A stretch of DNA of 62,141 nucleotides from a virus (taxonomy: Duplodnaviria; Caudoviricetes), in the IMG/VR virus record IMGVR_UViG_3300020057_000042, positions 1-62,141 of that record, one strand, 5' to 3'. Both the position numbers and the translations under genes were made by a program. Below are positions 19,721 through 41,509 of this stretch, one piece after another (the first letter of the stretch is position 1; each line of letters starts with the position of its first letter). The notes beneath the pieces are model-generated. The model ran no database searches, was not told the origin of the DNA, and was given only the letters and a program-made list of their open reading frames with translations.

Positions 19721-20122
19721 ACCGGCATCCTCTTTCTCTTAGCCAGTTCGGATTCGATGCCTTCCACGTCCACGGTCAGTGATGTGCCGAAGTATTCTCG
19801 GGCGCAGCGTGACTTGCAGAACGCATCCGCTGGCGCATAACGTGATGCTGTCGGCGGGATCGGGTTGCCACACACAACGCACATGCGATCCTTGCGCGGG
19901 AGGGGTTCACTGATCGTCGTCATCTACTTCTCCGATGTGAATGATGCTCGCGAACGAATCCCTGCGTGTCAGGACCTCGAACTGCCGTAGTGTCAAAGCA
20001 CCAGCGAGGAAACGGGGGATACCGGCGTCGAGCAGTGCTTTGCGGAACTCGGCCAGCACCTCCGCTACCTGCCGGAAGCCATGCACCATCACCTGTTTGT
20101 CGTCACGGTCGAAGTTGCTCAT
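19717..20122 (-). CDS. Two small hypothetical genes (19717-19923 Zn-ribbon; 19907-20122)
   Basis: Coupled ORFs; CVVCG..FCKSRC in the first. Confidence 0.5.
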
Positions 20123-20559
20123 TCTTCCTCTTTCGTGTCGGGGGAAGCGACGGCAAGAAGCTCGTCTACATGCTTTCTGTCTTCCTTCTTGCGGCCCTCC
20201 GCCATCCAAAGGAGATCACGTCTGATACCGGGATGAGAGATTGCCCCTTCCAGTTCGGCCACCCGCTCTTCCGCAGCCTCGGCACGGGCAACGATCTCCT
20301 CCACTCCTTCGGCTACCTGATACTTCCACTCGTCCCGCTCCCGTTCAGCTCGCTCGGCACGGGCCTTGTAGTCATCGCGCACCCGTTGCGTTCCGATCAA
20401 AGCGTTCCGTGTGGCGACAAGAGACTGCTCCGCTTCCTTCGCGATGGCGACCAGGAAGTTGAGGGACGCGAAACCGTTGTTGACCACATCGGGCGTGAGT
20501 TCCATCACGTCGATGGCGTCCCGCACCGTGTCGGCCAGGGCGTCGAGATCGGTGTTCAT
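20119..20559 (-). CDS. Modular coiled-coil protein, paralogue of 39671-40207
   Basis: DLDALADTVR, LVAIAKEAEQSL.ATRNAL.GTQRVRDDYK and RVAELEGA blocks shared with the plus-strand array. Confidence 0.75.
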   Translation of the reverse strand: MNTDLDALADTVRDAIDVMELTPDVVNNGFASLNFLVAIAKEAEQSLVATRNALIGTQRVRDDYKARAERAERERDEWKYQVAEGVEEIVARAEAAEERVAELEGAISHPGIRRDLLWMAEGRKKEDRKHVDELLAVASPDTKEEE

Positions 20560-20868
20560 GCTCCTCCCTTCCGCTTATTGCGGTTTGACGGTGGAAACAG
20601 ATCCGACCACATCATCCACAGCACCAAGCCGAAGAAGATGAGGATTACAGCCATCAAGACGAATATCGTTCCTGTCAGCACTTCTCTCACGTTCCCTCCT
20701 TCGGGTCAAAGTCGGTCATGGCCCGAACACCAAATCTGTGCCCTTGATGATCGCCCAAATGAACGCCCCGATAATCGAGCCGAAGACGACCAATGGAAAC
20801 CACAGAGGGAAGCACGCGATAAGCCCTGCTTTCTCCCATCCGGTCAGTTTGTGCCATCGCCCGCTCAT
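20556..20868 (-). CDS. Two small membrane proteins (20556-20690; 20716-20868)
   Basis: Hydrophobic ORFs, each preceded by the CCCGAAGGAGGGAAC junction. Confidence 0.55.
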
Positions 20869-21921
20869 GTTCCCTCCTTCGGGTCGTGGGGAGGAAGAAT
20901 GTCTACGACTGTGATCTCAAAACGTGCGCCAGAGCGGTGAGTCATGGTGCGATGATGCTGGTCGAGAGTGATGCCCTCCGGCCCTTCCTCACACTGAGAG
21001 GTCGAGATAGCGGACGCTCCTGTGATTCCGTATCGTTCTCCGAATGGTGCGGCGGTCATCTCGGCAAGTAGCTCCCTAGCGTCCATCTGTTTCCTCCTTC
21101 GGGTCGTGGGAAGCGAGGGCAGCGGCTATCCTTCTGTGTTCCCGATCTAGCGTCTCTTCCAGTTCGGCCAGCAACTCCTCCACACGGTCGAGAGCAGCCT
21201 GGGCGTAGCAGTGACACCCTTCATCTGCCAGCGTGGTGCAGTTCGGATGGTGCCCCTGTGGGTGGTAGCCGCGCTGCAACGACTCCCGGATCGTTTCGAT
21301 GTCGCTCATGTTCCCTCCTTCGGGTCGTGGGAATCGAGGGCAGCGCGAGCGGCTTCCTCGGCACCTCTGGCTAGTTGCTCGCCGTCCTCGCCGCCGTAGT
21401 GTTTCTCGCAACGGCCTACAAACGGGACACCCTTCGCGGAGATCCGCAGGATGGTGTCTCCCTTGCTCGGGTGGCGCTCGCAACCGGGGAAGGAACAGGC
21501 CATGCTCACGGTGAACGCTCTATGAGTGCGGCTGCTTTCTCGCACCAGTCGAACCATGACCATCCTTCGATTCGCGGGAGCAGTGATTCACCAACGTACT
21601 CTCGTGTCAGTCGGAATGCTTCGATCCCCTCGGCCAGCGCCGCTTCCAATGCGGCCACCCGTGCCTCCTCAGCCCTCTGCTCTTCCATCGTGCAGTGCCA
21701 CAGTTCGTTGCTCATGTTGCCTCCTTGGAATCGTATTTGACGCGCAGTTCGTGGAGCGTCCAGCGATCACCGGCCCATGTGACTTTGGCGTGTGTGACTC
21801 GGCAGCGAACCCCGTCCACGAGGACATGTTCGCCTCGTCGCGGCGGGGCCAACGGGAAGAACTTGAACGTGTCCTGCTTCTCCACGTCGACTAGAGTGCC
21901 ACGCTTGAAGGCTCGTCTCAT
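20865..21921 (-). CDS. Array of five short coupled ORFs (20865-21086, 21076-21309, 21306-21509, 21506-21715, 21712-21921)
   Basis: Several end in HDPKEGT/HDPKEET/DSKEAT encoded by the repeated junction. Confidence 0.6.
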
Positions 21922-22130
21922 TCTTCCTCCCGAAGTTCAGATGGTCGTACCCCAAGCGTTTCAGGAAGCATGGCCGAGGGCACGTCGAACTCCTCACACA
22001 ACCTCCTGATGTACGTGCGGACGGACTCGCGGGAGATGTCCATTTCCTCGGCCATCTCCCGCTGTGTGAAGCCGTCAGCCAGGAAGCTCACCACCCTCCA
22101 CTCCTGCGGTTCCAGGTTGTAGAGAGTCAT
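21918..22130 (-). CDS. LuxR-type HTH protein
   Basis: LEPQEWRVVSFLADGFTQREMAEEMDISRESVRTYIRRL. Confidence 0.75.
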   Translation of the reverse strand: MTLYNLEPQEWRVVSFLADGFTQREMAEEMDISRESVRTYIRRLCEEFDVPSAMLPETLGVRPSELREEE

Positions 22131-22807
22131 GCTGCGCGCCTCGTTCCGGTGGTGGGACGAGGAAACCCTGCCGTCTCGATCGCGTTTGACCACGATCCGA
22201 AGTAGTAACGAACGCTAGATGATGATGGGTTCTCGTCTCCGACGTTCTTCCAGTCTGGCGTCACTGGTGGTCGTCCGTGGTAGATCGTCCACGCGACGAT
22301 CGCGCCGATGATCTTCTCGCGTGACCACTCTTGCCGATCGCCGTAAACGCCCGCCTTGGGACGATGGAATCCTGCTGCTTCGATAGCGTCGGCCCACTTC
22401 GGGAACGCCGCCTGCGGTCCGTACACAGACATCGCGCAAGGGTAGGGACCGTGAGGGTCCGAAAGCATCCATTCCCTCGAAGCAGGTGGTCTGCCATTAA
22501 GGCGTGCCCACTTCTGTATTGCCCCGATGACTGCCTCCTGCGTCCATATCTTCGTGTGGTGTCTCGTGCAGGCATCACATCGCTTCGGCGCGTTGTAGCC
22601 CGACGATCCGTCCGTCTTCGCTCCGCAGTCGACGCACGTTCCCCGATACCGTTCCCGACGGGTCTTCTGCTTCGACCCGTCGGGATCGTTGATGATTGCG
22701 TAGACCGTTTTCACCGAGCAGCCCATCAACTCGGCGATCCGTTTCCCGCTGCACCCGTATAGATCGCGGAGCATGATGATGTGCTCGTACTTCTCGGCGC
22801 GGGTCAT
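22127..22807 (-). CDS. HTH + Zn finger + homing-endonuclease-associated repeats
   Basis: Two W(T/S)xE..I.AI..W....GRPP...W...F..W..AIE.AG repeats. Confidence 0.7.
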   Translation of the reverse strand: MTRAEKYEHIIMLRDLYGCSGKRIAELMGCSVKTVYAIINDPDGSKQKTRRERYRGTCVDCGAKTDGSSGYNAPKRCDACTRHHTKIWTQEAVIGAIQKWARLNGRPPASREWMLSDPHGPYPCAMSVYGPQAAFPKWADAIEAAGFHRPKAGVYGDRQEWSREKIIGAIVAWTIYHGRPPVTPDWKNVGDENPSSSSVRYYFGSWSNAIETAGFPRPTTGTRRAA

Positions 22808-22808
22808 C

Positions 22809-23309
22809 CTAGAACGGAATGTCGTTGTCGTCGTACTCGTATCCCGCTGTCGCAGGCGCGGGAGGCTGCTGGTACTCGGTCACGATGTCCGGCTCGGCCT
22901 CGGGCGCAGGAACTTGCTCTGAGCGGCCGTCAGCCCACGCGAACGAGCCTCCACTCTCCCGATCCACCTTCACCACGTAGTCGTGGTAGGCGATCCCCCT
23001 GGAGCCTGTGCGCTCCCCCTTGTAGGCAACCCCGACTCGCTCACCCGGTACGGGACGTGCGGCGTGCATCTGGTTGGCGAGGACGGTGGACTGGCAGTGG
23101 ATAGCAACGTCACCCACGCCCTCCACGTTCAGGATCAGCACGTCATACTCGCCGTCCTGGTTGAAGTTCTCGCGGGTGAAGTGGTCGACGGCGATCCCGA
23201 TGACCACCTGTTCGTTGTAGGACGGGTTCTCGTACTTCGCTGCTTTCTCCGCCTGAGGAATCCACGGCATAGAAGAGCCTCCCTGGAGTCGATCTTCGAG
23301 TGAACTCAT
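22809..23309 (-). CDS. Single-stranded DNA-binding protein-like
   Basis: Beta-rich core and acidic C-terminal DDNDIPF; AAGGAG RBS. Confidence 0.65.
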   Translation of the reverse strand: MSSLEDRLQGGSSMPWIPQAEKAAKYENPSYNEQVVIGIAVDHFTRENFNQDGEYDVLILNVEGVGDVAIHCQSTVLANQMHAARPVPGERVGVAYKGERTGSRGIAYHDYVVKVDRESGGSFAWADGRSEQVPAPEAEPDIVTEYQQPPAPATAGYEYDDNDIPF

Positions 23310-23803
23310 GTTGTCTCCTTCGCTTTGAGTGTGATCTTCTTCTTCTCGTACTCAGACACGCCGCTCCAATTCCTATGTCTGAGGATGGGGATTGGTCGTT
23401 CCTTCCGACATGTCAGGCAGACTCTCGCCCTCCTGCCATTGGTCTTGACTTTGATCCCGGTGTTCTCGGGCGTGAATTCGTGCCCGTGGATGCAGTGCGT
23501 TCTGGCAGCGTTCTCAGTGACAGGACTGATGCCCCTCAACTTGTTCTCAGTGGGGGTGACGGCCTCTAGGTGGAACGGATTGACGCACTTCTTGTTACGA
23601 CACAGATGGTCGATGCAATGCCCCTCGGGAACCGGGCCAAACGAGGTCACATAGGCGTACTGGTGGGCACCAATGTTGGTTCCTTGGAACCAAAACACTC
23701 CGTAGCCCGTCCAGTGAATTGCCGCTTGCCATTCCCAGCACTCGTGCTCGCTTGGAATGTCGACCTTGAGCCAGAACCGCTCTTGTGGGGACAACTTCAT
23801 CAT
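23306..23803 (-). CDS. HNH homing endonuclease (paralogue of 17770-18258)
   Basis: [34 protein letters not shown]. Confidence 0.9.
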   Translation of the reverse strand: MMKLSPQERFWLKVDIPSEHECWEWQAAIHWTGYGVFWFQGTNIGAHQYAYVTSFGPVPEGHCIDHLCRNKKCVNPFHLEAVTPTENKLRGISPVTENAARTHCIHGHEFTPENTGIKVKTNGRRARVCLTCRKERPIPILRHRNWSGVSEYEKKKITLKAKETT

Positions 23804-25565
23804 AGTTCTTGCTTGTCCAACTCCCTTTGTAGTGTGATCCGCTTCGGCCAGTCCTCCGGCCCGTAAGCGTCGAGATCGTCCTCGGAAATTCGGACGGCCT
23901 GAACACAAGTGCGTGCGTTATCTGCCTCCCTCCTCCACGCCCCGATCGTCTCGTCGGCGTGCTTGGCGAGGTCGAGCGCGAGATGGTGAATGTTGAACGT
24001 GAACTCGTCTCCGTCTTCGGTTGTGACGTTGAGCGTGAACATGCCTTCGTCTGTGTCGAAGACGACAGCGTCGGCGCGTGCGTAATGCCTCATGTTGTTG
24101 CCGCCAACAGGGATGGGGCGCACTCCCACTCCACGATCTCGCGCTCGTGCTCCGCGATCACCTGCTCGGGGACGTGCTCGGTGCCGACCACGATCCTTTT
24201 ACAGACATCCTCGCGGGGCGCGATGACCGAGAACTTGTGGGGACCGAAATTCTTGGTCACGTAGAAGTAGATGCTGTCGCCGTTCTTGTTTGCCGTCCCC
24301 ATGATCCGGGCAGCTTCGGACAACTTCTTCACCGCCGTTATGTCGCCGTCGTCGTACTCGAACTTCATCGCGTGAGCAACGCTCTGCAAAGGGATGAGGT
24401 CGGGGTGAATCTCGAACCATGCGGCCATGCTGTACAGGCCGTCGATGTAGTCGCGCTGTATGTCGTTCATGCTGCCTCTCCTTCGTAGTTGCAGTTCTCC
24501 AGGCAGTCAAGTGCTGCCACGGTGTCCGTTCCATGAGGGCCGCGTCCGTGCTCGCACGTCCAGCGTCCCTCGATGTCTTGCATCACCCACGCGCCGAGAC
24601 AGTTGACTTGCACTCCCGGCATCTCCGAATCCATGAGGTCGTAGGCGTCGGGGTCGTCGAAGTTGAAGACGGGGTCGTCAGCGAACGCAGCGGGGTCCAT
24701 CATGTTCTCCTTCCCAATGGTGAAGCAGGCCACGGATTCACGATCCACTCTCTCGTGTCGAGCGTCAAAACTCCGACCATGTCATTGCAAGTGATTTGCC
24801 TTTCCTCGGTGAGGGTGCGCAGGGTGAAGCCGAGCGCGTCGTCGTCGCACGATGCCACCTGATATGGCTCGTCGTCACGCAGGACGTAGATGGCAAGGCT
24901 GCTCATCGCTCGTTCTCCAGCAGCCACGGCATAAACCTTCTCGCCCACGCCTGATGGGCACCGGCCATCGTGATGATGGCCGGTGGAACACCGTTGACGT
25001 AGGGCATACCGCTGGCGGTAATCACGCCGACTCCTTGATGATGAAGTTGATGGCGGCGATGGCGGCGAAGGCCGCAAGGGCGAAGAGCCAAGCAGCCCTA
25101 CTATCGATGCCGACGATGACAAGCCCCCCAAACAACGTTCCCTGCATTATCACCGCAGTAAGAAGAGCTTGCATTAGGTCACTTCCTTGGTGGTGACGAT
25201 GACGGCGTACTGGGCCGAGTGGCCGAAGTTGAGCGACAGGTAGAGATTCGCTTCTCCTGGCTTGTCGAAGTGCGCGGCATCTCGTTCTTTGTCGCACCAC
25301 TCACCGCGCTCTCCCGCGTACAACACTTCTCCGCTCGGTAGGTCAAAGCGCAAGACCACGCTCATCACTCCACCTCCATCCCTACGATGTGTGCGACTGT
25401 CTCGGGATGGGAGGCAACGTACAAGCGTGCCTCTAGGTCTGTCATCTCGTCGGGGGTCAGTGACTCCTCGGAGCTGAACATCATGCGGGATTCCATTGTG
25501 TTTGAGAACCACGTGCTTCGCCACAACGCTCGCACCTGTCGCTCCGTCAATCTCATGCTGTTCAT
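23800..25565 (-). CDS. Run of about eight small hypothetical early genes
   Basis: Tightly coupled ORFs with GGAG RBSs (e.g. 23800-24093, 24090-24470). Confidence 0.5.
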
Positions 25566-28512: not shown

Positions 28513-28535
28513 GATTGATTCTCCTTCTCTTCCTG

Positions 28536-31955: not shown

Positions 31956-31983
31956 AGTATACATAAACGTGCGCACGATACAA
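31956..31983 (-). promoter_or_regulatory. Promoter TTGTAT-N16-TATACT with palindrome CGTGCGCACG in the spacer
   Basis: Head of the leftward early operon. Confidence 0.6.
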
Positions 31984-32731: not shown

Positions 32732-32749
32732 TGGTGTACGATCTCGGGC

Positions 32750-33328: not shown

Positions 33329-34299
33329 GTGAGGGGGAGCGGACGAAGCCGAATGAGGTGGCCCTGGTCGTGCCAACACGTATGGGTGACAGGAACCATG
33401 AGCGGAGGCGAGCGCGTCAAAATCTGCTCTCTTTGCGACCGAGCCAAATACATCTGTGAGTTTCACCCGTATGGACCCCGGAATGGCCCCGTCATCTTGA
33501 CTGCACGCTGTAGTTGCCCGAGATCAACCCCAACGTTCGCGGCGGATGATCCCCAAATGGATATGGAGGAGGTGTGATGAGAGAGGGGCGTAAGGTTATG
33601 GTGCGCGGGGAGATCCCGCGACGGCGTAGTCAGTTGCCCATGAAACAACCGCGCCCCTCTCTGATCGCACTGACTGCCAGCGGGAACGCATGAATGCGCA
33701 GTCTCAGTTGCGCTCTCGCGGCGACCGCATGAGCGTTACTCGTGACCGCGAGATCCGCGTCACGTTTCGCAGTGATGATGAGACAGCGGAACGGATTCAG
33801 GACTACATGGAGATCGCTGTTACCGCCCTCACTATGCCGACGAGGGAAACGGCGAGCGCACTGTTCTCCATTGGGGCGGAGGCCGTCGTCAATGCTGCCC
33901 GACGCGAACCCGAGGACGCGGTATGAGAGTCAGCACCGATCCGTCTTGCATCCCTGACAGAACTGCGCCTGCGATCACCGTTCATGCGTTGAAGGAGAAC
34001 AAGCGTCCGATCGGGTTCGCTCCCTGGCCCGAGCCTGCGAAGCCGAAGAGAGCGCGGAAGAAGAAAGCGCCACCGAAGGACGCAGGCGTGTGAGCACTTG
34101 CGAATGTGACATCTGCGACTTCTGCATCCACTACGCCTTCAACGGCTTGGATGGCAACAACAGCATCTATACGGGCGACGGCCGGTGTCTGCACCCCGAG
34201 CATCCTGGCCCGCGAGATCCTAGCGACGGCTGTCCCGACTTCGAGTGTTCCATCTGCCCAATTCTCGATCAAACCGTCGAGGTCATCCGTGAGGACTGA
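33329..34299 (+). CDS. Several small hypothetical genes between TerS and TerL
   Basis: Coupled short, partly Cys-rich ORFs (33329-33577, 33729-33926, 33923-34093, 34090-34299). Confidence 0.45.
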
Positions 34300-35902
34300 C
34301 TCTCCGTTCGGTACGCCGGAGACGAAAGAACAGATCGAGGAGACATTGGCTTCGATCGAAGCGGTGCTGGAGAAGAAGGAGCGCGAAGACCGGATCTTCG
34401 AGGAGTCCCATGCGTTGAGCATGGACTTCAAGGCGTTCATCTTGGAAGCATGGAAGGAGTTGGAGCCGCTCAACCTGTTTATGGACAACTGGCACATCGA
34501 CGCTATCGTCGAGCATCTGACGCAAGTGTCGATGAACAACATCAAGCGCCTCCAAATCTGGGTGCCTCCAGGCTCGGCAAAATCCAGTCTCGTCTCGGTG
34601 CTCTGGCCCGCTTGGGAGTGGACACACGATCCTGCGCTTCGCTACTGGACCGGCTCGTATGACATTCGCCTCAGCCAGCAGTTTGCGGCTGCTTCACGGA
34701 ACCTGATGCTGTCCGACTGGTATCAGGAACGGTGGGGGCTGATGTTCAAGCTGATGAAGAAGCATGAGGCGTGGATCACAAACGACCAGGGCGGACACCG
34801 GCTCGCCACCTCACCCGAGTCGTCAGGCACAGGCGTGCACGGCCACAGGATCCTCCTGGACGACGCCCTCAACGCCCTCGACGCCTCGGCCACCACACGG
34901 GCGATCTTGGACCGCACGAACACATGGTATTCGGAGTCGCTCGCCACCCGAGGTCTTCCAGGGTATGCGGAAGTCATCATCATGCAGCGCCTCCACGAAA
35001 GCGACGTTGCCGCCCACGCCCTGTCTTTTGCTGACAACTGGGAGGTGCTGTGCTTGCCCGAAGTCTACGAGAAGAAGCATCCGTTCGCCTGGAAAGGCGA
35101 CCCCAGGAAAGAAGGCGAGTTGATGTGGCCCGAGAGGCGTGACGTGGCCGAACACAAAACGCTCGTGCGCAAACTCGGGAAGAGCAAAGCAGCAGGCCAG
35201 TTGCAGCAACGACCTGCCGCACGCGAAGGAACGATCATCCCCAGGTCGGACTGGCGCTTCTTCCCTCCTGCTTTTTTGGATGCAGCAGAAGGCGGTGACG
35301 TGTCGAAGCTGCCCAGGTTTCGTTCCATCGTCATCTCCTGGGACACGACTTTCAAGGACAAGTCAACTTCCGACTATGTGGCCGGAGGAGTGTGGGGGAT
35401 CAACGGCGCAGACAGATACCTGCTCCGAGTGTTCCACCAGCGTGCCTCTCTGTCAGTGACGAAGCGAGCGATGATCGAGATGCGGCAGTGGTGTGCGAAG
35501 CGCTGGCCGACGATCCCCACACGCATCCTGATCGAGAAGTCAGCGAACGGAGTCGAGATCATCAACCAGTTGAAACGCGAGATCCCCGGTGTGATCCCCT
35601 ATGTCGCATCGAACGACAAGATCACGCGAGCGGAAGCGTGCGAACCCGACTTCAACAGCCACAACGTCTTCGTCCCCGGCGTCCAGAGAGCCGACATGAC
35701 TGACTACGACTCCCAAGGCACCCCCGCCTGGGTGCAGGAACTGATCGAACAATGCAGTTCGTTCCCCCTTGCCCCCCACGACGATCTCGTGGACATGGTC
35801 ACGATGGCCCTCAACTACGCGAGGACGAAAAGCCATTCGGGAATGCGAACGTCGTCCGCTTTGCGTGGTATAAGCCGCCCCGTCATCCCAATCCGTCGAT
35901 AG
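34289..35902 (+). CDS. terL: Terminase large subunit
   Basis: Walker A PPGSAKS, Walker B ILLDD, IMQRLHESD, ISWDT and HDDLVD; likely start GTG 34289. Confidence 0.95.
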   Translation: MRTDSPFGTPETKEQIEETLASIEAVLEKKEREDRIFEESHALSMDFKAFILEAWKELEPLNLFMDNWHIDAIVEHLTQVSMNNIKRLQIWVPPGSAKSSLVSVLWPAWEWTHDPALRYWTGSYDIRLSQQFAAASRNLMLSDWYQERWGLMFKLMKKHEAWITNDQGGHRLATSPESSGTGVHGHRILLDDALNALDASATTRAILDRTNTWYSESLATRGLPGYAEVIIMQRLHESDVAAHALSFADNWEVLCLPEVYEKKHPFAWKGDPRKEGELMWPERRDVAEHKTLVRKLGKSKAAGQLQQRPAAREGTIIPRSDWRFFPPAFLDAAEGGDVSKLPRFRSIVISWDTTFKDKSTSDYVAGGVWGINGADRYLLRVFHQRASLSVTKRAMIEMRQWCAKRWPTIPTRILIEKSANGVEIINQLKREIPGVIPYVASNDKITRAEACEPDFNSHNVFVPGVQRADMTDYDSQGTPAWVQELIEQCSSFPLAPHDDLVDMVTMALNYARTKSHSGMRTSSALRGISRPVIPIRR

Positions 35903-35924
35903 CCCCTATAGAGAAGGACAGGAT

Positions 35925-36224
35925 TTGGCGATCACGAAGGCGCGCTCCCTGCATCGCGACGACATCCGCTGCGACAAGTGCGGCAACGTCCGAACCGTTG
36001 ACACCCGACAAGCACGACGGTGGCGGGAAGGGCACATCGCAGGGACATGCATCACCTGCCGGGGCGGTTCGGCAACGAGAGTCTGCAAGGACGGCCACCT
36101 TGCCTTCTGGCTCACCGCCTACGGAGTGAAAGTGCCTCGGGGCAAAGCACGGGAGATCATTACCGCTGGCGGTACACCCCCCGAACTCGTCCAACTGGCA
36201 AAAGACGTATGGGGCGACGACTGA
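35925..36224 (+). CDS. Zn-binding hypothetical protein
   Basis: CDKC..CITC. Confidence 0.5.
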   Translation: MAITKARSLHRDDIRCDKCGNVRTVDTRQARRWREGHIAGTCITCRGGSATRVCKDGHLAFWLTAYGVKVPRGKAREIITAGGTPPELVQLAKDVWGDD

Positions 36225-36228
36225 CCAT

Positions 36229-36263
36229 TTGACATTCGTGCGCACGAAATGTAAGGTGCGCAC
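36229..36263 (+). promoter_or_regulatory. Promoter TTGACA-N17-TAAGGT with operator palindromes TTCGTGCGCACGAA and GTGCGCAC
   Basis: Leaderless ATG at 36264. Confidence 0.75.
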
Positions 36264-36401
36264 ATGGCAAAGAAAGAGTCAACCGTCAACGTCCGTGCCT
36301 CCCTTGAAGAGAAGGCACTGTGGAAGCAGCACGCCCCCTACGGGCAGTTGTCCCGGTGGATACGCAGGCTGATCGACGCCGAGATCGCGAGACAGAAGTG
36401 A
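36264..36401 (+). CDS. 45-aa ribbon-helix-helix protein
   Basis: MAKKESTVNVRASLEEKALWKQHAPYGQLSRWIRRLIDAEIARQK; below the ORF-track cutoff. Confidence 0.65.
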   Translation: MAKKESTVNVRASLEEKALWKQHAPYGQLSRWIRRLIDAEIARQK

Positions 36402-37087
36402 TCTCCATACTCATTCCCGTGCTTGCGCGCCCACAGAACGCCAAGCCTGTCGTCGACTCGATCCGGGCGCACACCACCGTCGAACACGAGATCATTTTCA
36501 TCTGCTCACGAGGAGACGTAGCGCAGATCAATGCGTGCTACGACACAGCCGCTTCCATCGTGGTGACGACATGGGAGGCAGGTCCGGGTGACGCAGCGAA
36601 GAAATGGAACCTCGGCTTCGCCCACAGCAAAGGAGAGTTTGTCTTCTGCGCCGCCGACGATGTCGAGTTCACCCCCGGATGGGACACCGAAGCGTTGAGG
36701 GTGGCCGAGAGCACAGGCGCGTCAGTAATAGGGACGAACGATGACGCCAACCCCCTCGTCAAGAGAGGGAAGCACTCGACGCACACGATGGTCAGACGCT
36801 CCTATGTCGAGGAACACGGCTTGACGTGGGACAACATTCCCGGCCTGATCTACTGCGAGGAGTACGACCACCAGAGCATCGACCAGGAACTCGTTCACCT
36901 AGCTAGAGAGCGAGGCATCTGGGCGTTCGCTCGCAACTCGGTGGTGAAGCACAATCACCCGTTTTACAACAAGGCGGTACGCCGCGATTCAACGTACGAC
37001 AAAGCCCTCGCGCACGGCCACGAAGACCTAATGCTGTTCAGGGAGAGGCTTCGTACTCTCTCACCCTCTTCGCGACGGCCTCGGTAG
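36398..37087 (+). CDS. Glycosyltransferase, GT-A/GT2
   Basis: ISILIPV, WNLG..GEFVFCAADD and VKHNHP. Confidence 0.85.
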   Translation: MISILIPVLARPQNAKPVVDSIRAHTTVEHEIIFICSRGDVAQINACYDTAASIVVTTWEAGPGDAAKKWNLGFAHSKGEFVFCAADDVEFTPGWDTEALRVAESTGASVIGTNDDANPLVKRGKHSTHTMVRRSYVEEHGLTWDNIPGLIYCEEYDHQSIDQELVHLARERGIWAFARNSVVKHNHPFYNKAVRRDSTYDKALAHGHEDLMLFRERLRTLSPSSRRPR

Positions 37088-37702
37088 ACCTTCGGGCATC
37101 GGAACAGACTTCCAATGTCTACCGTTCAGAATGCGACCCATGGCACCGTCTGTGATCCCAAACCGATTGGCAACCTCGCGGATGCTGATGTCGGTAGAAG
37201 CATACAAGGCGCGGGCTGCAACGACCCCCTCAACGGTCATTTTCGATTTAGGGTTGTCTTCGCCGTATCTGGGTTTGTTCCGACCCAACTTCCAGGCTCG
37301 ACTAGCGTTGGCGGCGTGTGTATCGGCGTAGAGATGGGCCGGGTTCACGCACGGCGGGTTGTCGCAGGAATGGCAGACTTCTTTGCCATCGGGAACGGGG
37401 CCGTGGTTAATGACGAAGCAGTACCTATGCGCCCCCACGAGGCGATTGCTTCCGCTTTGTCGCTTCGTCCCATCCCAGAAAACCCCATATCCATCTTGGT
37501 TGATGCGACCTGTATAGAGCCAACAAGCATCGTCATCTCCCCTGTCTACTCGCGCCCAGAATCTTTCTGGAACAGTGAGGCCGTAAAGACGAGAACCTGG
37601 ATTGTGGGGATCGCCCAATCTCTTCCACCGCTGATTGTGCAAGCGGCAATACTTGTTGGCATAAAACGGTTTCTCGCAGCCCTCGATAGAACACTTTTTC
37701 AT
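37061..37702 (-). CDS. HNH homing endonuclease with C-terminal HTH
   Basis: RFWARV..CWLYTG..CHSCDNPPCVNPAHL; TATACT -10 just upstream. Confidence 0.9.
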   Translation of the reverse strand: MKKCSIEGCEKPFYANKYCRLHNQRWKRLGDPHNPGSRLYGLTVPERFWARVDRGDDDACWLYTGRINQDGYGVFWDGTKRQSGSNRLVGAHRYCFVINHGPVPDGKEVCHSCDNPPCVNPAHLYADTHAANASRAWKLGRNKPRYGEDNPKSKMTVEGVVAARALYASTDISIREVANRFGITDGAMGRILNGRHWKSVPMPEGLPRPSRRG

Positions 37703-37721
37703 CAGTTTAGTATACTTGAAG

Positions 37722-37750
37722 TTGACGAAAACGCGGAACGGTGATATAAG
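37722..37750 (+). promoter_or_regulatory. Promoter TTGACG-N17-TATAAG with ACGGTGA before the -10
   Basis: Drives the plus-strand modular array. Confidence 0.7.
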
Positions 37751-37797
37751 TTGTCCAACCGAAGACAATGGAACGCCTCACTAAGGAGTGGAGCACG

Positions 37798-38163
37798 ATG
37801 ACCGATCTACCGCTGACCTCCCCCGACATCGACGCCCTTGCCGACAAAGTGCGGCGCGCATGGGTTCAAGCACCCCTGTTCAGTGGCCTCTGTGTGCAGA
37901 AACTATTCAAGAGCTACGTCAACGAGGCCGAGCCTGCCCTCGATGACCTGGTCGCCATCGCGAAGGACGCGGCGGAGCGTGCCGAGCGAGCAGAACGCGA
38001 GCGGGACGCGGTGCATGTACGTCTTTGCGAGGAACGTGGCCGCGTGGCAGCGCCCCAACCCGAAGCGGTACGCAACTGGCACACAGACGGCGAGTACCAC
38101 GCGAGGTACGAAAGAACACGCCGCGCTGCCCTCGCTTCCCACGACACGAAGGAGGGAACATGA
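37798..38163 (+). CDS. Modular coiled-coil protein
   Basis: DIDALADKVR, DLVAIAK, ERAERAERERD and ALASHDTKEGT blocks. Confidence 0.7.
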   Translation: MTDLPLTSPDIDALADKVRRAWVQAPLFSGLCVQKLFKSYVNEAEPALDDLVAIAKDAAERAERAERERDAVHVRLCEERGRVAAPQPEAVRNWHTDGEYHARYERTRRAALASHDTKEGT

Positions 38164-38636
38164 CCTCCGACTTCGACACGATCCGGAACGGACTGCGCGC
38201 AGACTGGAGGGCAGAGAGCGCCCTCAACCGTGTTGAGTCGGCAGCCGAACAAGCCGAGAAGGCGCTGGAGCATCTAACCGACAACCGGAGCAGCCTTGAC
38301 CGTGCGTACGGGTTCAAGGAGGAGGTTGAGCGGTTGAGAAGGCATGTGTCGGAAGCAGAGCATCTAGCGGCGGATCAAAGCCAGAGCGCGGACGAGTGGC
38401 AGGAGCGTGCTGAGCGAGCAGAACGCCGCAACTCCTGGTTGGCTATGGAAGCGCGGGTGGCCGAACTAAAGGGAAGAGGGAGCGACAGGCGCATCGTTCG
38501 GATCAAGGCCGCGGAAGCACGGGTGGCCGCGCTGGAGATGGTGCATGGTCGTTGGTGCGCTGATTACCCGCACCTGATGACGGCATACGACAAGGCTGTC
38601 CTCCCCTCCTGCTCCCCGAAGGAGAGCGCAGCATGA
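38160..38636 (+). CDS. Modular coiled-coil protein
   Basis: MTSDFDTIR, RVESAAEQAEK, ADEWQERAE and EARVAEL blocks. Confidence 0.7.
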   Translation: MTSDFDTIRNGLRADWRAESALNRVESAAEQAEKALEHLTDNRSSLDRAYGFKEEVERLRRHVSEAEHLAADQSQSADEWQERAERAERRNSWLAMEARVAELKGRGSDRRIVRIKAAEARVAALEMVHGRWCADYPHLMTAYDKAVLPSCSPKESAA

Positions 38637-39674
38637 CCTGGTGGGAGAAAGCCCTGCTCGCGTATTTGGCGTTCGTCGCCCTGACGATCGGATGGTTACT
38701 GCACGCAACGCGAACCGCACCCGAAAGGAATGATTGGTGATGGCTGCTCCAACCGCACTACCGCAAAGGCCGACAACGGGAACAACCGAAGACCGTCCGG
38801 CGTTCGTGGTCGGCGATGTTCCACTGCCACCTCCACCTCCACCACCACCTCCTGCGGATCCGTGCGTCGACGTTAGGGCGAACCTGGCTGCAACCCAGGG
38901 TGCGCTGCTCGACGCAACAGACCGGATTGAGGAGGCCCGCGTGTTGTGTCGAGACCAGATCGTACGGTGGCGAGCGGAGAAGCCGCCGAGGTCGTGGGCT
39001 TGGATCAAGAAGCAGCCTGCCAGTGAAGCGTTCTACGGGCCGCTGGAGGGATCGTGACGAGCGACCGCGACGACGTGCATGTTCGTGCTGCTGCGATTCT
39101 GGCGGACAAATACGCTGATCCGTGGTTGAAGCTCGCCCGCTATGAAGAGTTGACGGATGACCTGTTGGATCGTCTCGATGAGGCAGTGAATTACCTTCGC
39201 CGTGTGGTGCAGGCCGACCGTGATGACACGAAGATGGGCTACCCGATTCCCGGTGACTCGTGTCTTGCGGCGTGTATCGGCTTGGAGGTGATGCGCTTCC
39301 TCGACGACGTCGGAGCGTTGACGGATGGGGTGGGTACCGATGGTAAGCGCACTGTCGGGGTGATGGCGGGGTCTAATGAGGCCGCGTCTTTGCCGGAGGC
39401 CGGAAGGTCGCCCACTCCATCCGTGAGCGCCCCCGACATCGACGTCGTGGCCGACAAGATCCTGGCCGACATGGTGCGGGAAGGGTTCACTCGCGTTGAG
39501 GCCGACGCTCGGTTGTTCGCTCTTGCCCCGTCGATGACCGCACTCCTCCTGATCGAGGCGCGGGAACTGATCCAGGAACTTCACGACAATCTGGTTCACC
39601 CCCATCCGTTCGACTGTGAATCGTGCGATCTCCTTTCTCGCATTGACGGGCTAACCGACAGGAGGAACGGATGA
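38633..39674 (+). CDS. Three hypothetical genes (TM peptide from 38633; Pro-rich 38739-39057; 39054-39674)
   Basis: Coupled ORFs; the last contains PDIDVVADK. Confidence 0.5.
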
Positions 39675-40207
39675 CCGCCGACATCGACGCCCTGGCCGAC
39701 ACAGTGCGGGCCTGCTTCACTCGCGCACAGTCGCTCGGGCCTACCGACATGAGCGACGGCCATCGCTCTCTTTCCGACCTGGTTGCCATCGCGAAGGAAG
39801 CGGAGCAATCCCTTCTCGCCACACGGAACGCCCTGAGCGGAACGCAACGGGTGCGCGATGACTACAAGTCCCGTGCCAAGGCCGCAGAACGCTTAGTAGT
39901 GCGCCTGCAAGTCGATGTGGAGACATTCAAACAGGTGGCTCATTTTCACGCAGATAAAGCCAATCGAGCGGAACGAGAGCATGACGAACAGCGAGCCTCG
40001 AAGGTACTTGCCCACCAGCAACTCGATCTCACCGAGGCACGGGTGGCCGAACTGGAAGGGGCGCTGGCAGGACTGCTCCCGTGGGCAGGCCGTCAGACAT
40101 TCGAGACTGATGCCTGCTGGGTCATCGCTCGCGATACCCTCGCTGCCCCCGACACCACGGACTGCCGTCACGTCGATAACGGCCCGAGCTGGTGGTGGCG
40201 CTTATGA
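39671..40207 (+). CDS. Modular coiled-coil protein, paralogue of 20119-20559
   Basis: Shares a ~100-bp near-identical block in inverted orientation. Confidence 0.75.
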   Translation: MTADIDALADTVRACFTRAQSLGPTDMSDGHRSLSDLVAIAKEAEQSLLATRNALSGTQRVRDDYKSRAKAAERLVVRLQVDVETFKQVAHFHADKANRAEREHDEQRASKVLAHQQLDLTEARVAELEGALAGLLPWAGRQTFETDACWVIARDTLAAPDTTDCRHVDNGPSWWWRL

Positions 40208-40647
40208 CCTCCGACTTTGACAACTCGATCCTCAACGAGGTACTCGCCGAGAGAGAACGTCAAGACAAGAAGTGGGGCGGCGTCCCCGGTATTGATCGTC
40301 TTGACGACCACACCTATGCGGCCGTGCTTGGCGAGGAGTTCGGCGAGGTCTGTCAGGCTTGGTTACAGCGCGATGTCAAGGAGTTGCGCCTTGAGTTGAT
40401 TCAGGTTGCCGCCGTTGCTGTCGCTTGGATTGAGGAGATTGACAACGGAGGGGCAATGCAGCGGGCTCTGTTCCGGCAGCCCCTCGCTTCCCCCGACCCG
40501 GAGTTACCGCTCGACCTTGAGCGTGTGCTGCGTGACCCGTCGATCATCGTGCCGCAAGACCAAGCGGTGTTCGAGGCCGTCGCACGGTGGAAGAACGCAC
40601 CGAGCGACACCGCATCCGCTTCCCCCGACCCGAAGGAGGGAACATGA
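40204..40647 (+). CDS. MazG-like nucleotide pyrophosphohydrolase
   Basis: ERERQDKKWG..LGEEFGEV..ELIQVAAVAVAWIE. Confidence 0.7.
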   Translation: MTSDFDNSILNEVLAERERQDKKWGGVPGIDRLDDHTYAAVLGEEFGEVCQAWLQRDVKELRLELIQVAAVAVAWIEEIDNGGAMQRALFRQPLASPDPELPLDLERVLRDPSIIVPQDQAVFEAVARWKNAPSDTASASPDPKEGT

Positions 40648-40777
40648 GCGCCGGTTGGAGGCAGCGAATCCGTGAATGGTTGTGTCGCCAATACGGACAC
40701 AGGCCCACAGAGGATGCCAACGCCACGTACTGCCGACGCTGCCTGGTTCTGATCGGCCCGAAGCAAAAGGACACAGC

Positions 40778-41509
40778 ATGACCGCTGACTTCGACACGAT
40801 CCGGGCGGCGCTGGCCGACTACGACGCACCCGGAACAGTCGGCCAAACCTCCGTCATGGCCGCTCTCGCCCGTGTTGAGGCAGCAGCCGAACAAGCCGAG
40901 AAGGAAGCGGAGAAGATCCTTCCCGCTGACGAGGTGTGCGCGTGCCTGGACGAAACAGGCGGGCGACAGGTTCGGATCTACGAGCGGTGCGAACGCTGTC
41001 ATGCTCTGATGGAATCGGATTTGGCCGAACAGCTTGCGGAGCAGTCCGAGAGCGCGGACGAGTGGCGCGAACAATGGGAGCGAGCGAAGCAGCGTGCCGA
41101 ACAAGCAGAGAGCGCCGCGAAGGATGCGCAGATGAAGGAGCGGGCGCTGACGGATTACTTCGCGGACGCATCCCGACGAGCGGACGAGTGGCAGGAGCGT
41201 GCCGAACAAGCAGAGCGGGAGCGGGACGAACTGATCCGCAACGGTCTGACCGACCTGACCGAAACAGCCCGCCAGCTAGAGCGATCAGAAGCATGGGCGG
41301 CCGAACTTGAGGCGGACAACCGGGCGATGCAGCAGGAAGCTGACGAGATGGAAGCACGGGTGGAACAAGCCGAGAAGGCTCTGTGCGAAATCGTGATGGC
41401 AGAACCGTTGGAAGTGGACGGCCGGACGATGTGGCCTTCGTTCTCGGGCGAGTTGCAGAACAAAGCTTTCGTCGCCCTCTCGCTGTTGCGCGGCAAGGAC
41501 ACGGGATGA
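40778..41509 (+). CDS. Modular coiled-coil protein
   Basis: MTADFDTIR, RVEAAAEQAEK and ADEW(R/Q)E repeats. Confidence 0.7.
   Translation: MTADFDTIRAALADYDAPGTVGQTSVMAALARVEAAAEQAEKEAEKILPADEVCACLDETGGRQVRIYERCERCHALMESDLAEQLAEQSESADEWREQWERAKQRAEQAESAAKDAQMKERALTDYFADASRRADEWQERAEQAERERDELIRNGLTDLTETARQLERSEAWAAELEADNRAMQQEADEMEARVEQAEKALCEIVMAEPLEVDGRTMWPSFSGELQNKAFVALSLLRGKDTG

Follow-up and report, generated by a model that had tools for sequence, protein, structure and literature searches.

The window, as we call the whole 62,141-nt stretch analysed here, is the 62-kb record of an uncultured siphovirus from microbial mats. It holds two arrays, one on the minus strand (19.9-22.2 kb) and one on the plus strand (37.8-41.5 kb), both made up of tightly packed small ORFan genes that have DNA blocks of 14-67 nt, here termed anchors, in common. 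The plus array is placed between terminase and portal genes, and the minus array is surrounded by non-structural genes. From the list of open reading frames and their translations, together with profile scans, the main features are as follows.

19907-22193, minus strand: minus array, ten small genes (m1-m10) with ATGA 4-nt overlaps at most joints
19907-20122, minus strand: m1
20119-20559, minus strand: m2, ordered A1, filler, A2, middle, A7, middle, A3, C-terminal piece; a paralogue of p5
20556-20690, 20716-20868, 20865-21086 and 21076-21309, minus strand: m3, m4, m5 and m6
21306-21503, 21506-21715, 21712-21921 and 21918-22193, minus strand: m7, m8, m9 and m10
22127-22807, minus strand: inner edge of the minus array, helix-turn-helix gene with a 'homing endonuclease associated repeat' (Pfam HNH_repeat, E 1.8e-12; Sigma70_r4_2, E 4.4e-7)
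37061-37768, minus strand: inner edge of the plus array, free-standing HNH endonuclease gene (Pfam HNH_3, E 2.2e-8; phrog_3593, E 2.6e-29)
37768-41509, plus strand: plus array, eight genes (p1-p8)
37768/37798-38163, plus strand: p1
38160-38636, plus strand: p2, a paralogue of p8 across its N-terminal third (A5 to A6), with two A3 copies
38734-39057 and 39054-39674, plus strand: p3 and p4
39671-40207, plus strand: p5, the reference member, with A1 (residues 4-13), filler, A2 (about 37-42), a long helix, A3 (122-133) and a C-terminal piece
40204-40647 and 40644-40781, plus strand: p6 and p7
40778-41509, plus strand: p8, the longest; from the N-terminus it has A5, A6, a zinc-ribbon-like module (CxC...CxxC), a coiled coil holding two copies of A7, and a C-terminal piece

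Most window genes fall in no known family in the Pfam and PHROGs scans. None of m1-m9 reached the threshold for a Pfam or PHROG family, m10 has a helix-turn-helix of the GerE/sigma-70 region 4 type, and p6 is the sole plus-array gene with a clear PHROG (phrog_2831, of unknown function; E 3.5e-22). No family member in the window reached the Pfam threshold, where only coiled-coil noise was returned. Of the variable pieces, first read as host-takeover or anti-defence effectors and so far candidates for such roles, just one, in one relative, matched a domain (HicB-like, 27.2 bits; cut-off 27). The family is rare, with 44 clusters among 1.84 billion representatives. The array reading frames are intact and joined by 4-nt overlaps, and their pN/pS is 0.39 (from non-independent comparisons with 269 synonymous and 325 nonsynonymous differences); the array proteins are under purifying selection.

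Anchors and the junction cassette

About seven anchors are present: two alternative N-terminal ones, three to four internal ones and one junction cassette of about 40 nt. Those within genes are listed here, placed by repeat search, with distinct copies counted over the window and the metagenome loci described below.

A1, DIDALAD(T/K)VR, as in DIDALADTVR: 39675-39709, 37820-37854 and 39430-39464 (plus; the last inside p4), 20520-20559 (minus); 80-91% nucleotide identity; 17 distinct copies
A2, LVAIAK, as in LVAIAKEAE: 39776-39803 and about 37937-37977 (plus), about 20425-20465 (minus); 23 distinct copies
A3, EARVA.LE, as in EARVAELEGAL: 40034-40068, 38441-38467 and 38507-38536 (plus), 20243-20278 and 21633-21674 (minus); 20 distinct copies
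A5, MT(S/A)DFDTIR, a gene start: 38160-38186, 40204-40237 and 40777-40804 (plus), a variant at about 21285-21311 (minus); a further MT(S/A)DFD at 39671; 17 distinct copies
A6, RVE.AAEQAEK: 38219-38267 and 40861-40904 (plus); 89% identity
A7, RAERAERERD/ADEWQERAE: 37969-38008, 38370-38427, 41036-41066, 41084-41114 and 41180-41229 (plus), 20330-20366 (minus); 14 distinct copies

The six block families described in the initial annotation all lie within a few bases of the positions it gave, save that its EARVA.LE copy at 41351 is a partial match only, the repeat search listing a copy at 41288 instead. Codons are near-fixed in A1, and CGG GTG GCC is fixed in A3. Across anchors, Thr is encoded by ACA in 12/14 and 17/17 cases, Arg by CGG in 20/20 and Ala by GCC in 16/16 and 18/18, against an expected codon homozygosity of 0.23-0.32. 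The DNA identity of the anchors exceeds what the amino acids require, these codons being near-fixed and including genome-rare ones. The earlier proposal of more identity than coiled-coil convergence needs is borne out, and synonymous sites within anchors are conserved rather than freely diverged. Self-BLASTP shows real paralogy among the array genes.

Such codon-level identity speaks against ordinary divergence, in which a few old duplications and convergent low-complexity E/R/A-rich heptads would account for the arrays with no recurrent recombination. The low complexity of A7 RAERAERERD, the Pfam noise and the drop of several self-BLASTP matches under composition correction (p2 against p8, from E 1e-15 to 5e-5) would fit that reading. 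However, it has to contend as well with 100% identical pieces that adjoin unrelated sequence and with the altered orders and neighbours found in relatives, and we rate it the least probable of the explanations considered.

The most repeated block is the junction cassette, which is confined to the arrays and contains an ATGA stop/start. Its copies, from the repeat search and a 13-copy alignment, are given below.

38124-38163, plus strand: cassette of about 40 nt ending AAGGAGGGAACATGA, comprising the upstream C-terminus ..ALASHD(P/T)KEGT*, a Shine-Dalgarno sequence and the overlapping next start
40617-40650, plus strand: copy
21302-21345, 21088-21124 and 20862-20893, minus strand: copies
20683-20707, minus strand: copy, non-coding there
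20117-20149, minus strand: diverged copy
40481-40503: relic inside p6

The repeats are more than chance would give: the 21-nt junction motif GACCCGAAGGAGGGAACATGA, which the initial annotation did not list, has five matches with at most three mismatches, all within the two arrays, against 0.00 expected from 100 shuffles. Whole genes, and not gene segments only, are exchanged at this cassette. The cassette, the whole-gene shuffling at it and the presence in the arrays of unrelated cargo genes (in the window, genes for small membrane proteins; in relatives, genes for beta-helix proteins and polysaccharide lyases) were absent from the initial annotation.

The model of p5 (AlphaFold2) consists of a helix at residues 2-20 and a single long helix at 27-157, with pLDDT above 90 at residues 40-130. 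Its homodimer prediction scored 0.57 (best control 0.00). Of 30 proteins whose solved structures are pairs of one chain, 20 attain this mark, as does 1 of 23 whose solved structures are single chains. Runs agree in at least 82% of contacts, with partner pLDDT of at least 77; the input was a 12-row alignment made for this analysis, and such models readily place long helices side by side. Parallel coiled-coil dimers are thus the predicted form of the family proteins, in line with the coiled-coil scaffold first suggested for them.

It is possible, though we lean against it, that the anchors are kept for functions of their own and that recombination is a by-product. The junction cassette could serve to couple translation of neighbouring genes. 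The N-terminal blocks could be a peptide for targeting or assembly, either a capsid-targeting sequence on proteins that are packaged and injected (compare the internal proteins of T4) or a domain for virion attachment like those of adhesins, and the internal blocks could be coiled-coil triggers or partner-binding sites. The Shine-Dalgarno sequence and ATGA overlap in the cassette point this way, as do the pairing of the Shine-Dalgarno with an upstream pyrimidine tract in 11 of 13 minimum-energy folds, the position of the plus array between terminase and portal genes and, in the predicted dimer, in-register contacts that pass through the anchors. Since the copy at 20683-20707 is non-coding, the cassette would act there as RNA or DNA. 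However, cassette fold energies are no better than those of shuffles (z -2.4 to +0.6), protein function alone does not explain the fixed rare codons, and the minus array sits among non-structural genes. Such functions would also be compatible with recombination at anchors, which the breakpoints show. Anchor conservation may likewise stem from what the proteins do, from the needs of translation initiation or from recent shared ancestry, with cause and consequence inseparable here.

Reshuffled arrays in relatives

In eighteen metagenome loci the arrays are not collinear with those of the window, while the adjoining backbones are 97-99% identical to it. One of them, L010, is collinear with window positions 28590-37065 over its nucleotides 1-8477 (98.4%), beyond which array gene order and content differ. 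Another, L024, holds a full alternative plus array within the same flanks, including a piece of the minus-array m8/m7 at 96.5%. L009 and L010 are 99.4% identical across 4596 nt and begin to diverge at anchor A7. L010 11163-15226 and L021 6068-10131 match at 99.68%, past which L010 enters the backbone of the plus arm and L021 that of the minus arm.

The same mosaicism is found in metagenome proteins, in which pieces of p5, p8, p2, m2 and m8 are reordered, often with one piece at 100% and the remainder dissimilar. Within the window, m2 and p5 are collinear (E 7e-27, self-BLASTP), with 89% DNA identity between 20342-20455 (114 nt) and 39778-39891; in a relative (P0033), residues 1-41 are identical to m2 and are followed by a p8-type module. 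Sharing of p5 is likewise piecewise, at 100% for residues 1-43 in P0008 and for residues 122-178 in P0003 and P0004, and for the middle in P0005. Most of the 29 relatives of p8 cover it partially, its zinc-ribbon-like module being found in the more distant P0027, P0028 and P0030 too, and the set of partners matching p2 shifts along its length. At least one anchor is carried by 89 of 102 non-contained proteins. The 286 inter-anchor segments fall into 145 clusters, 46 of them with at least two members; 37 of these 46 shared segment types have two or more differing neighbours, and 35 of 126 adjacent segment pairs are reassorted on both sides.

Comparison of the window with the loci gave 35 unique breakpoints, of which 17 are no more than 10 nt from an anchor of the strict definition (15.4% expected; p 4e-6). 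In locus-against-locus comparisons, based on matches of at least 97% identity across at least 300 nt, 29 of 37 are equally close to an anchor when anchors are defined loosely (17.1% expected; p 5e-16), or 23 of 31 after redundancy removal; with the strict set the figure is 15 of 37 (p 1.4e-3), so that roughly half of breakpoints fall at anchors under the strict definition. Examples are those at 40034, 40068 and 21667 in A3 and at 38266 and 40885-40911 in A6. Others lie away from any repeat, inside p4 (39066, 39101, 39184 and 39335) and at 41034, 41474 and 41504. The blocks had been read from the outset as recombination joints; relatives do hold other combinations and orders, with high identity ending at blocks.

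It should be noted that all relatives are short-read metagenome contigs, with no long read phasing an array, and some joints could therefore be assembly chimeras. Taken further, the mosaics would be chimeras between repeats and the window arrays an ordinary family of diverged paralogues. Some relatives are of low coverage (L021 is labelled cov 6.7), contigs from the Logan assembly of run X1 end at shared blocks (38187-38233, 39794-39867 and 41318-41431), and many joints in runs X2-X4 have short sides of 21-39 nt. However, the anchors are imperfect and mostly of 14-67 nt, mostly below the repeat length that usually misleads assemblers; identical junctions recur across samples and assemblers (L009/L010/L021, 99.4-99.7% over 3-4.6 kb; L014/L015, 99.9%); frames stay open through joints; and the differences between modules are real substitutions, as the pN/pS indicates. 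The window arrangement itself was returned by a second assembler, seven contigs of the independent X1 assembly tiling 36800-41700 with 0 differences (an eighth listed contig has three differences and diverges past 38268). We regard an assembly artefact as highly improbable. Depth is about 65 on the flanks but falls to about 35 from 38204 to 41338, which points to a co-existing variant in one sample.

Recombination genes and a proposal for array diversification

No reverse transcriptase, invertase, integrase, transposase or recombinase was found in the window when sets of 22, 66 and 62 ORFs were scanned against Pfam and PHROGs, in agreement with the first inspection of the sequence. The HNH gene at 37061-37768 is mobile, being present in some relatives and missing from others. 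Homology to L010 ends at 37065, the gene being absent there, and in a contig from run X2 position 37078 is joined to 37729, skipping 650 nt. Another relative, L014, has genes for RecT (E 1.2e-29), for a nuclease of the Metallophos family and for an ATPase resembling SbcC directly upstream of its array.

The suggestion that the arrays form a dedicated diversification system is not supported: no enzyme was found, and the evidence is of population-level recombination among paralogues and co-circulating phages. Active, high-frequency shuffling in each infection cycle or lineage by an unrecognised ORFan enzyme, along the lines of shufflons or diversity-generating retroelements, would suit a rearrangement rate far above that of point divergence (many breakpoints in 4-7 kb beside a 98.4% collinear backbone), the drop in depth within a single sample, two inverted arrays with anchors in common and the lack of a known family for most window genes. 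However, none of the families expected of such an enzyme was seen, and shared modules vary by 1-15% from contig to contig, synonymous changes included, which marks them as inherited variants of some age and not as new products shuffled from a single template set. Anchors are also imperfect (75-100% identical) and of several kinds, whereas site-specific systems use a single defined crossover site. A programmed diversifier is, in our view, very unlikely.

We consider it probable that the arrays are hyperplastic accessory regions whose diversity comes from general recombination at short homologies within the phage population and not from a programmed process. They would be occupied mainly by one rare family of small proteins, its genes built of interchangeable pieces between anchors. 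General homologous recombination that tolerates short or slightly diverged homology would cross over within anchors, whether the partners are paralogues of the same array, the two inverted arrays or related phages that co-infect a cell; junction cassettes would give whole-gene exchange and internal anchors exchange of gene segments. Selection would retain in-frame products, and the outcome would be a combinatorial repertoire with a turnover far above that of the remaining genome. As the window carries no recognisable recombinase, we infer the pathway, which would depend on the RecA of the host or on an annealing protein of phage origin, like the RecT of one relative, perhaps stimulated by double-strand breaks from the many HNH homing endonucleases. 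The proteins would most likely be accessory factors in phage-host or phage-phage conflict, presenting variable C-terminal pieces on a dimeric stalk.

The arrays are a clear example from nature of gene construction by recombination, with no dedicated shuffling enzyme found. The PeSLs provide a precedent, in which phage accessory genes are shuffled by recombination at short conserved cassettes (PMC2839356).

Gene arrays, repeated blocks and genomic setting

The repeated blocks lie in two arrays of small genes in opposite orientation, m1 to m10 and p1 to p8:

19907-22193 (-), minus array: ten small genes, most joined by 4-nt ATGA overlaps
37768-41509 (+), plus array: eight small genes, most joined by 4-nt ATGA overlaps

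The initial annotation had described two inverted arrays whose genes reuse the same DNA blocks, and a repeat search confirmed this, recovering every block family at or beside the positions at which it had been read. Two groups of paralogues are present, one consisting of m2 (20119-20559) and p5 (39671-40207; E 7e-27) with the N-terminal part of p1, the other of p2 and p8. The blocks, which we call anchors, are of about seven types, including A1 (DIDALADTVR), A2 (LVAIAKEAE), A3 (EARVAELEGAL), A5 (MT(S/A)DFDTIR), A6 (RVE.AAEQAEK) and A7 (RAERAERERD / ADEWQERAE); copies are 75-100% identical, direct within one array and inverted only between the arrays, which are ~17 kb apart.

The most repeated element of the arrays had been missed in the initial annotation. 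It is a junction cassette of ~40 nt, with the 3' end AAGGAGGGAACATGA, which encodes the end of the upstream protein (..ALASHDPKEGT*), then a Shine-Dalgarno sequence and the start codon of the following gene. Five matches to the 21-nt core of the cassette were found (0.00 expected), every one inside the arrays, and the copy at 20683-20707 is non-coding. When 13 distinct copies were aligned, minimum-energy folds paired the Shine-Dalgarno sequence in 11, with z-scores (-2.4 to +0.6) no better than those of shuffles, and a hairpin that would sequester this sequence is unproven. Counts of promoter-like sites in and around the arrays (1 and 0, with 1.2 expected) and of terminator-like sites (4 and 4, with 5.1 and 4.4 expected) were not above chance, ruling out the cassette as a promoter-terminator unit. 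Midway through p6 (40204-40647), and in its reading frame, is a relic cassette (..LASPDPE..; 40481-40503). The part of p6 downstream of this relic is also present after other genes, with 95-96.6% nucleotide identity, in four related metagenome loci (L009, L010, L012 and L021), so that p6 resembles two once-separate genes joined across a junction whose stop codon was lost.

The arrays also hold unrelated cargo, namely two small membrane proteins in the minus array (m3 and m4) and, in the arrays of relatives, beta-helix proteins (loci L010 and L024) and a polysaccharide lyase (L014, 8032-9126). Within p3, a CCACCT unit repeated 4.3 times (38827-38852) encodes a run of nine prolines, and Logan contigs seem cut at 38816-38858.

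The IMG/VR record is the entire window of 62,141 nt. Pfam and PHROGs matches identify small and large terminase, portal, MuF-like head protein, major capsid, major tail, tape measure, Dit and lysin genes, along with a DNA methyltransferase, several glycosyltransferases and at least five HNH endonucleases, and genes run leftward from ~31.8 kb and rightward from ~32.4 kb. Five HNH genes of the 62-kb genome, and a related gene, are located as follows:

12832-13392 (-), HNH endonuclease gene
17770-18258 (-), HNH endonuclease gene
22127-22807 (-), homing-endonuclease-associated repeat gene, bordering the minus array
23306-23908 (-), HNH endonuclease gene
37061-37768 (-), HNH endonuclease gene
55411-56070 (-), HNH endonuclease gene

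The portal is only ~25% identical to portals of Microbacterium, Streptomyces and Mycobacterium phages (actinobacteriophages). Neither a nucleotide search of 34000-42000 nor tblastn with p5 matched any GenBank phage, and IMG/VR scans with p5 and with an alignment as queries gave pattern matches only and no confirmed relative; no cultured relative is thus available for comparison. A 69-nt tandem repeat unit is common to both ends of the record (2.1 copies at 1-148, 1.9 copies at 62009-62141), so that the record, though classed as linear and 78% complete, is probably a closed circle cut inside an array of ~4 copies. No gene was found in a tRNA search.

Between the two arms, the divergent intergenic region 31850-32450 contains a purine-rich 22-nt tandem repeat (32025-32085) and overlaps the interval of strongest GC skew (0.179, at 32001-34000); a regulatory or an origin function is possible. 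GC content is highest (63%) at 27600-30830 (-), where a 764-aa ORF (28536-30830, -) belongs to a PHROG of no known function and has internal repeats; several short GC-rich repeat families lie upstream of this ORF, and tandem repeats occur at 27748, 29373 and 29540. An 888-aa head protein (48926-51592, +) matches MuF/head-morphogenesis PHROGs, and its residues 259-428 match RNA ligase PHROGs (E 9e-15), which may represent an enzymatic domain fused to a packaged head protein. Among the head genes around the plus array are sugar-modifying genes (36320-37087, 41631-46482 and 51552-52250), comprising four family-2 glycosyltransferase-like genes, a PIG-L-like deacetylase, an acetyltransferase, a DUF6625 gene and a glucosyltransferase.

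Rearranged relatives and the position of breakpoints

The anchor-protein family is rare, and the sequencing runs in which it occurs link it to samples of microbial mats and fresh water. A collection of 5.8 billion proteins contained, besides the queries, 11 relatives of p5 and 28 of p8, nearly all matching just a part of the query, and a profile search of 1.84 billion cluster representatives gave only 44 proteins at E <= 0.001; a longer-length search for fused forms of p5 found a single protein, of 313 aa. The related proteins read as chimeras of pieces encoded in the window, as in these five metagenome proteins:

P0003, an unrelated front followed by the last 57 residues of p5 at 100%
P0004, the middle of p8 joined to the tail of p5
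P0005, the middle of p5 joined to the tail of m8
P0008, the first 43 residues of p5 at 100%, then other modules
P0033, the first 41 residues of m2, then a module of p8

A metagenome scan yielded 18 related array loci, whose arrays are runs of intact ORFs with 4-nt overlaps. Relatives with alternative block orders, which the initial annotation had named as a check on its reading, were found among them, with non-collinear arrays on a near-identical backbone. Locus L010 matches window 28590-37065 at 98.4% identity with no rearrangement, lacks the HNH gene 37061-37768, and then continues with array pieces matching p4, p5, p8, p6 and p3 in another order, the p5 match (99.5%) ending exactly where anchor A3 ends. 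Locus L024 starts in the glycosyltransferase region of the window and ends at 41504-41627, and thus holds a complete alternative plus array; this array is also non-collinear, and includes a piece of m8/m7 from the minus array at 96.5%. Compared with each other, L009 and L010 are 99.4% identical across 4596 nt and then part at anchor A7.

Material also appears on both sides of the genome. Positions 11163-15226 of L010 correspond to 6068-10131 of L021 at 99.68%, and the backbone beyond this common ~4-kb block is that of the plus arm in L010 and that of the minus arm in L021 (window 25862-21917, 97-99%), which indicates that the block was recently present on both sides. It could have arisen by transfer between the arrays, by inverted duplication or by inversion of the core; comparing L010 with L021, among contigs that stop short of the outer flank of the minus array, hints that the core may have been inverted.

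In L023 (8669-14891), genes downstream of the array encode a DnaB helicase and a 1422-aa SNF2-type helicase protein, and a dUTPase is encoded upstream; the array of this phage lies within the replication region. Locus L026 is 84-95% identical in nucleotides to parts of the region upstream of the L014 array. In two samples, a family gene (L014 9989-10402 and L015 152-565) has a tryptophan-rich, nonsense-looking tail after its ADNRAM module; the protein P0009 is an intact counterpart that ends with the usual junction peptide, and the gene is probably a frameshifted family member.

The initial annotation had also predicted that breakpoints would fall inside the blocks, and they are enriched at or near them. 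We defined strict anchors from the window only, as array positions repeated at least two times elsewhere in the arrays (19 intervals, 584 of 6150 nt), and took as breakpoints the unique ends of locus-vs-window alignments of >=90% identity and >=100 nt, with contig ends excluded. Seventeen of the 35 unique breakpoints lay <=10 nt from a strict anchor, as against 15.4% expected (p 4e-6). The others were mostly at two-copy anchors or gene starts, and seven were at no repeat (39066, 39101, 39184, 39335, 41034, 41474 and 41504). Between loci, where internal ends of alignments of >=97% identity and >=300 nt were used, 15 of 37 breakpoints were at strict anchors (18.4% expected; p 1.4e-3); with a looser set of anchors (33 intervals, 1200 of 6150 nt) this rose to 29 of 37 (17.1% expected; p 5e-16), or 23 of 31 without identical contexts. 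Breakpoints fell at the junction cassette in the window comparison (38160, 40644-40652, 21297-21318 and 40483) and in the comparison between loci.

The variable pieces occur in many combinations. Splitting 102 non-contained family proteins at six anchor motifs gave 286 pieces, which automatic clustering sorted into 145 segment types. Among these, 46 recurred, 37 of the 46 with at least two different neighbours, and 35 of 126 adjacent segment pairs are reassorted on both sides. Segment [2] of p8, for example, stands behind A6 in the window and behind A2 in three relatives. Either A1 or A5 forms the N-terminus of 46 of the 89 listed architectures, with near-fixed codons. Examples of architectures, with numbered segments in brackets, are:

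p5, A1-[1]-A2-[8]-A3-[17]
relatives, A1-[1]-A2-[8]-A3-[40]; A1-[19]-A2-A3-[17]; [8]-A3-[18]
m8, [41]-A3-[18]

Could the mosaics be products of assembly? We think not, because identical junctions recur across contigs of different samples and assemblers, reading frames are open across the joints, and in the probable source run (X1) independent Logan contigs tile 36800-41700 with no difference in seven tiling contigs. The depth of the X1 contigs is ~65 on the flanks (36800-38216 and 41402-41700) vs ~35 for 38204-41338, a step that fits a second version of the array within the same sample. A joint in X1 that connects 38008 to 40040 was considered as an array variant and is explained by the window's own paralogue m2, in which A7 is followed by A3. 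In a second run, X2, a contig skips 37079-37728 and represents a variant without the HNH gene. The joints found in X2-X4, with interpretation of X3 and X4 confined to their covered parts, all touch anchors; since most of these joints have sides shorter than 30 nt they carry little weight, and are consistent with the contig comparison rather than independent proof.

Anchor copies resemble one another in their DNA even when the sequences beside them are unrelated. We compared the codons of distinct copies (17 of A1, 23 of A2, 20 of A3, 20 of the junction, 17 of A5, 3 of A6 and 14 of A7), and the synonymous-site conservation that the initial annotation had anticipated is evident, codon choice being far more uniform than genome usage predicts, rare codons included. 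Relatives differ in their shared modules by as much as 0.1-0.38 synonymous changes per site, and all comparisons together, which are not independent of one another, give a pN/pS of 0.39. This synonymous divergence and pN/pS argue that the genes are translated and constrained, and that their variants are inherited and not freshly made.

The encoded proteins

No family member encoded in the window reached the Pfam threshold, and hits up to E of 5 were coiled-coil noise only. An AlphaFold2 model of p5 has a short helix (residues 2-20), a loop and a long helix (27-157), with pLDDT >90 at residues 40-130 and low confidence for the C-terminal piece. When p5 was modelled as a homodimer from an alignment that we built ourselves, the score was 0.57 vs 0.00 for the best control, in a setting where long helices score easily; such a score was reached by 20 of 30 proteins solved as one-chain pairs and by 1 of 23 solved as single chains. 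The dimer runs agree in at least 82% of contacts, with partner pLDDT of at least 77. Along positions 5-139, contacts are spaced 3-4 residues apart, and some join a residue to its counterpart in the other copy (79-79 and 58-58, for example). p5 is thus predicted to pair as a parallel, in-register dimeric coiled coil.

The variable pieces include zinc-ribbon-like modules, a domain of no assigned function (phrog_2831) in p6 and, in one relative, a HicB-like domain just above threshold (27.2 bits, cut-off 27). A sequence search of the PDB with p6 returned nothing up to E of 1. For p8, the ESM Atlas gave leads only, with a best feature score of 0.89 and named clusters no higher than 0.81, namely Docking (0.81), Ead_Ea22 and phiKZ_IP (0.79) and Lar (0.78). 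An Ead/Ea22-like identity (PF13935) was rejected, as it has only the language-model score of 0.79 and no hmmscan match up to E = 5; a putative likeness of the N-terminal part of p6 to MazG-type pyrophosphatases was dropped as unconfirmed. Our literature searches, which were not exhaustive and concerned a family with no name to search by, found no description of it.

Proposed routes of exchange and comparison with known systems

Scans of the window's ORFs with Pfam and PHROGs found no recognisable reverse transcriptase, invertase or integrase, and neither a family model nor a search with the L014 protein found a RecT or annealing protein in the window. In the more distant relative L014, genes at 2073-7006 encode RecT (E 1.2e-29), a Metallophos nuclease and an SbcC-like ATPase; they stand immediately before the array, and an HNH gene follows it. 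The HNH gene that borders the plus array of the window is mobile and is absent from both the 98.4% identical relative and the X2 contig. From the lack of a recombinase in the window, the RecT and SbcC-like neighbours in L014 and the HNH-type genes at array edges, we infer that general recombination tolerating short, slightly diverged homology would exchange the pieces, perhaps stimulated by endonuclease cuts in mixed infection. The initial annotation had read the arrays as a combinatorial diversification system with the blocks as recombination anchors; breakpoints and mosaics uphold the anchors at the level of the phage population, and neither a dedicated system nor the effector role that the annotation gave to the variable pieces was supported by the tests that we ran.

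A more far-reaching proposal, which we consider unlikely to hold as a whole, is that the anchors are kept alike as exchange joints. In such a recombinase-independent exchange of cassettes, N-terminal blocks, stalk segments and C-terminal heads of any kind could be combined in frame on a coiled-coil dimer, entire genes would move at the junction cassette, and the inverted arrays would trade kilobase blocks, possibly by inversion of the ~17-kb core, with homing-endonuclease cuts at the array edges acting as the trigger during co-infection. Were this so, the phages would possess a fast-evolving repertoire of conflict proteins, which might be packaged and injected via the conserved N-terminal peptide. 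In phages, mosaicism is commonly observed between genes or modules, where most joints have decayed; here the joints are visible, intragenic and numerous, and sit in near-identical genomes from one habitat. This makes measurable the minimum length and maximum divergence of homology for productive exchange, whether homing endonucleases drive it, and whether selection maintains "evolvability" sequences. The arrays also provide a natural set of coiled-coil modules that can be swapped in frame, and a new, rare protein family whose rapid turnover makes it a candidate player in phage-host conflict.

How do these arrays relate to known systems? They differ from diversity-generating retroelements in that no reverse-transcriptase family was found among the ORFs scanned with Pfam and PHROGs, and in that short anchors are kept alike while the intervening sequence is unrelated, with no long repeat pair carrying base-specific differences. 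They differ from shufflons and other invertase systems in that the window yielded neither an Rci-type tyrosine recombinase nor a serine invertase, and in having about seven types of anchor instead of one defined inverted crossover site flanking invertible segments. In polymorphic toxin loci (CDI, Rhs), a conserved coding motif borders the constant part and the exchangeable C-terminal pieces, and orphan cassettes are arrayed nearby; here, no toxin or immunity domains were recognised, the proteins are small, and the locus belongs to a phage and not to a bacterial secretion system.

Other phage systems share single features. The T4 internal proteins are described as diverse small proteins with a common short N-terminal capsid-targeting sequence that defend against host restriction (Rao and Black, 2010, PMC3012670, citing Repoila et al., 1994). 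The anchor proteins resemble them in pattern only, with diverse bodies behind a short conserved N-terminal peptide, and their N-terminal blocks are of another sequence and conserved at the DNA level too. In Cluster K mycobacteriophages, some genes have a short conserved motif, the start-associated sequence, beside their start codons (Pope et al., 2011, PMC3203893). Our cassette is likewise directly upstream of some start codons, a likeness of position; unlike the Cluster K motif it extends ~25 nt farther upstream, into the end of the preceding gene, is confined to two arrays and coincides with rearrangement breakpoints. Relaxed homologous recombination by phage annealing proteins has been put forward as an enzymatic basis of mosaicism (De Paepe et al., 2014, PMC3945230; Neamah et al., 2017, PMC5499656), and a RecT gene adjoins the L014 array, although no such gene was found in the window. 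The gp38 adhesins of T-even phages, as outlined by Trojet et al. (2011, PMC3157838), have hypervariable segments between conserved glycine-rich motifs. Here too, short conserved motifs alternate with swappable segments, and the N-terminal part is conserved and the C-terminal part variable. The anchor proteins nonetheless have no Pfam or PHROG match and no sequence relation to gp38, their anchors are helical, with E, A and R abundant in place of glycine, many paralogues occur per genome in two arrays, and nothing found here pointed to a role in adsorption.

The PeSL cassettes of T4-type phages are placed at the boundaries of small non-essential ORFan genes in hyperplastic regions (Arbiol et al., 2010, PMC2839356; Comeau et al., 2014, PMC4122927), where their recombination accounts for insertions, deletions and replacements between close phages (PMC2839356). 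The resemblance lies in a conserved short cassette bounding small ORFan genes in a variable region, with breakpoints in the cassettes between close relatives. PeSLs combine a sigma-70 promoter with a stem-loop terminator, whereas the cassette described here is a ribosome-binding and stop-start junction, translational and not transcriptional; exchange here is also intragenic, at several further anchors, and the host lineage differs, the portal of our phage being only ~25% identical to actinobacteriophage portals. The arrays are thus distinct from known systems in combining gene-boundary and several intragenic joints in one family, a translational cassette, and two inverted arrays that share material.
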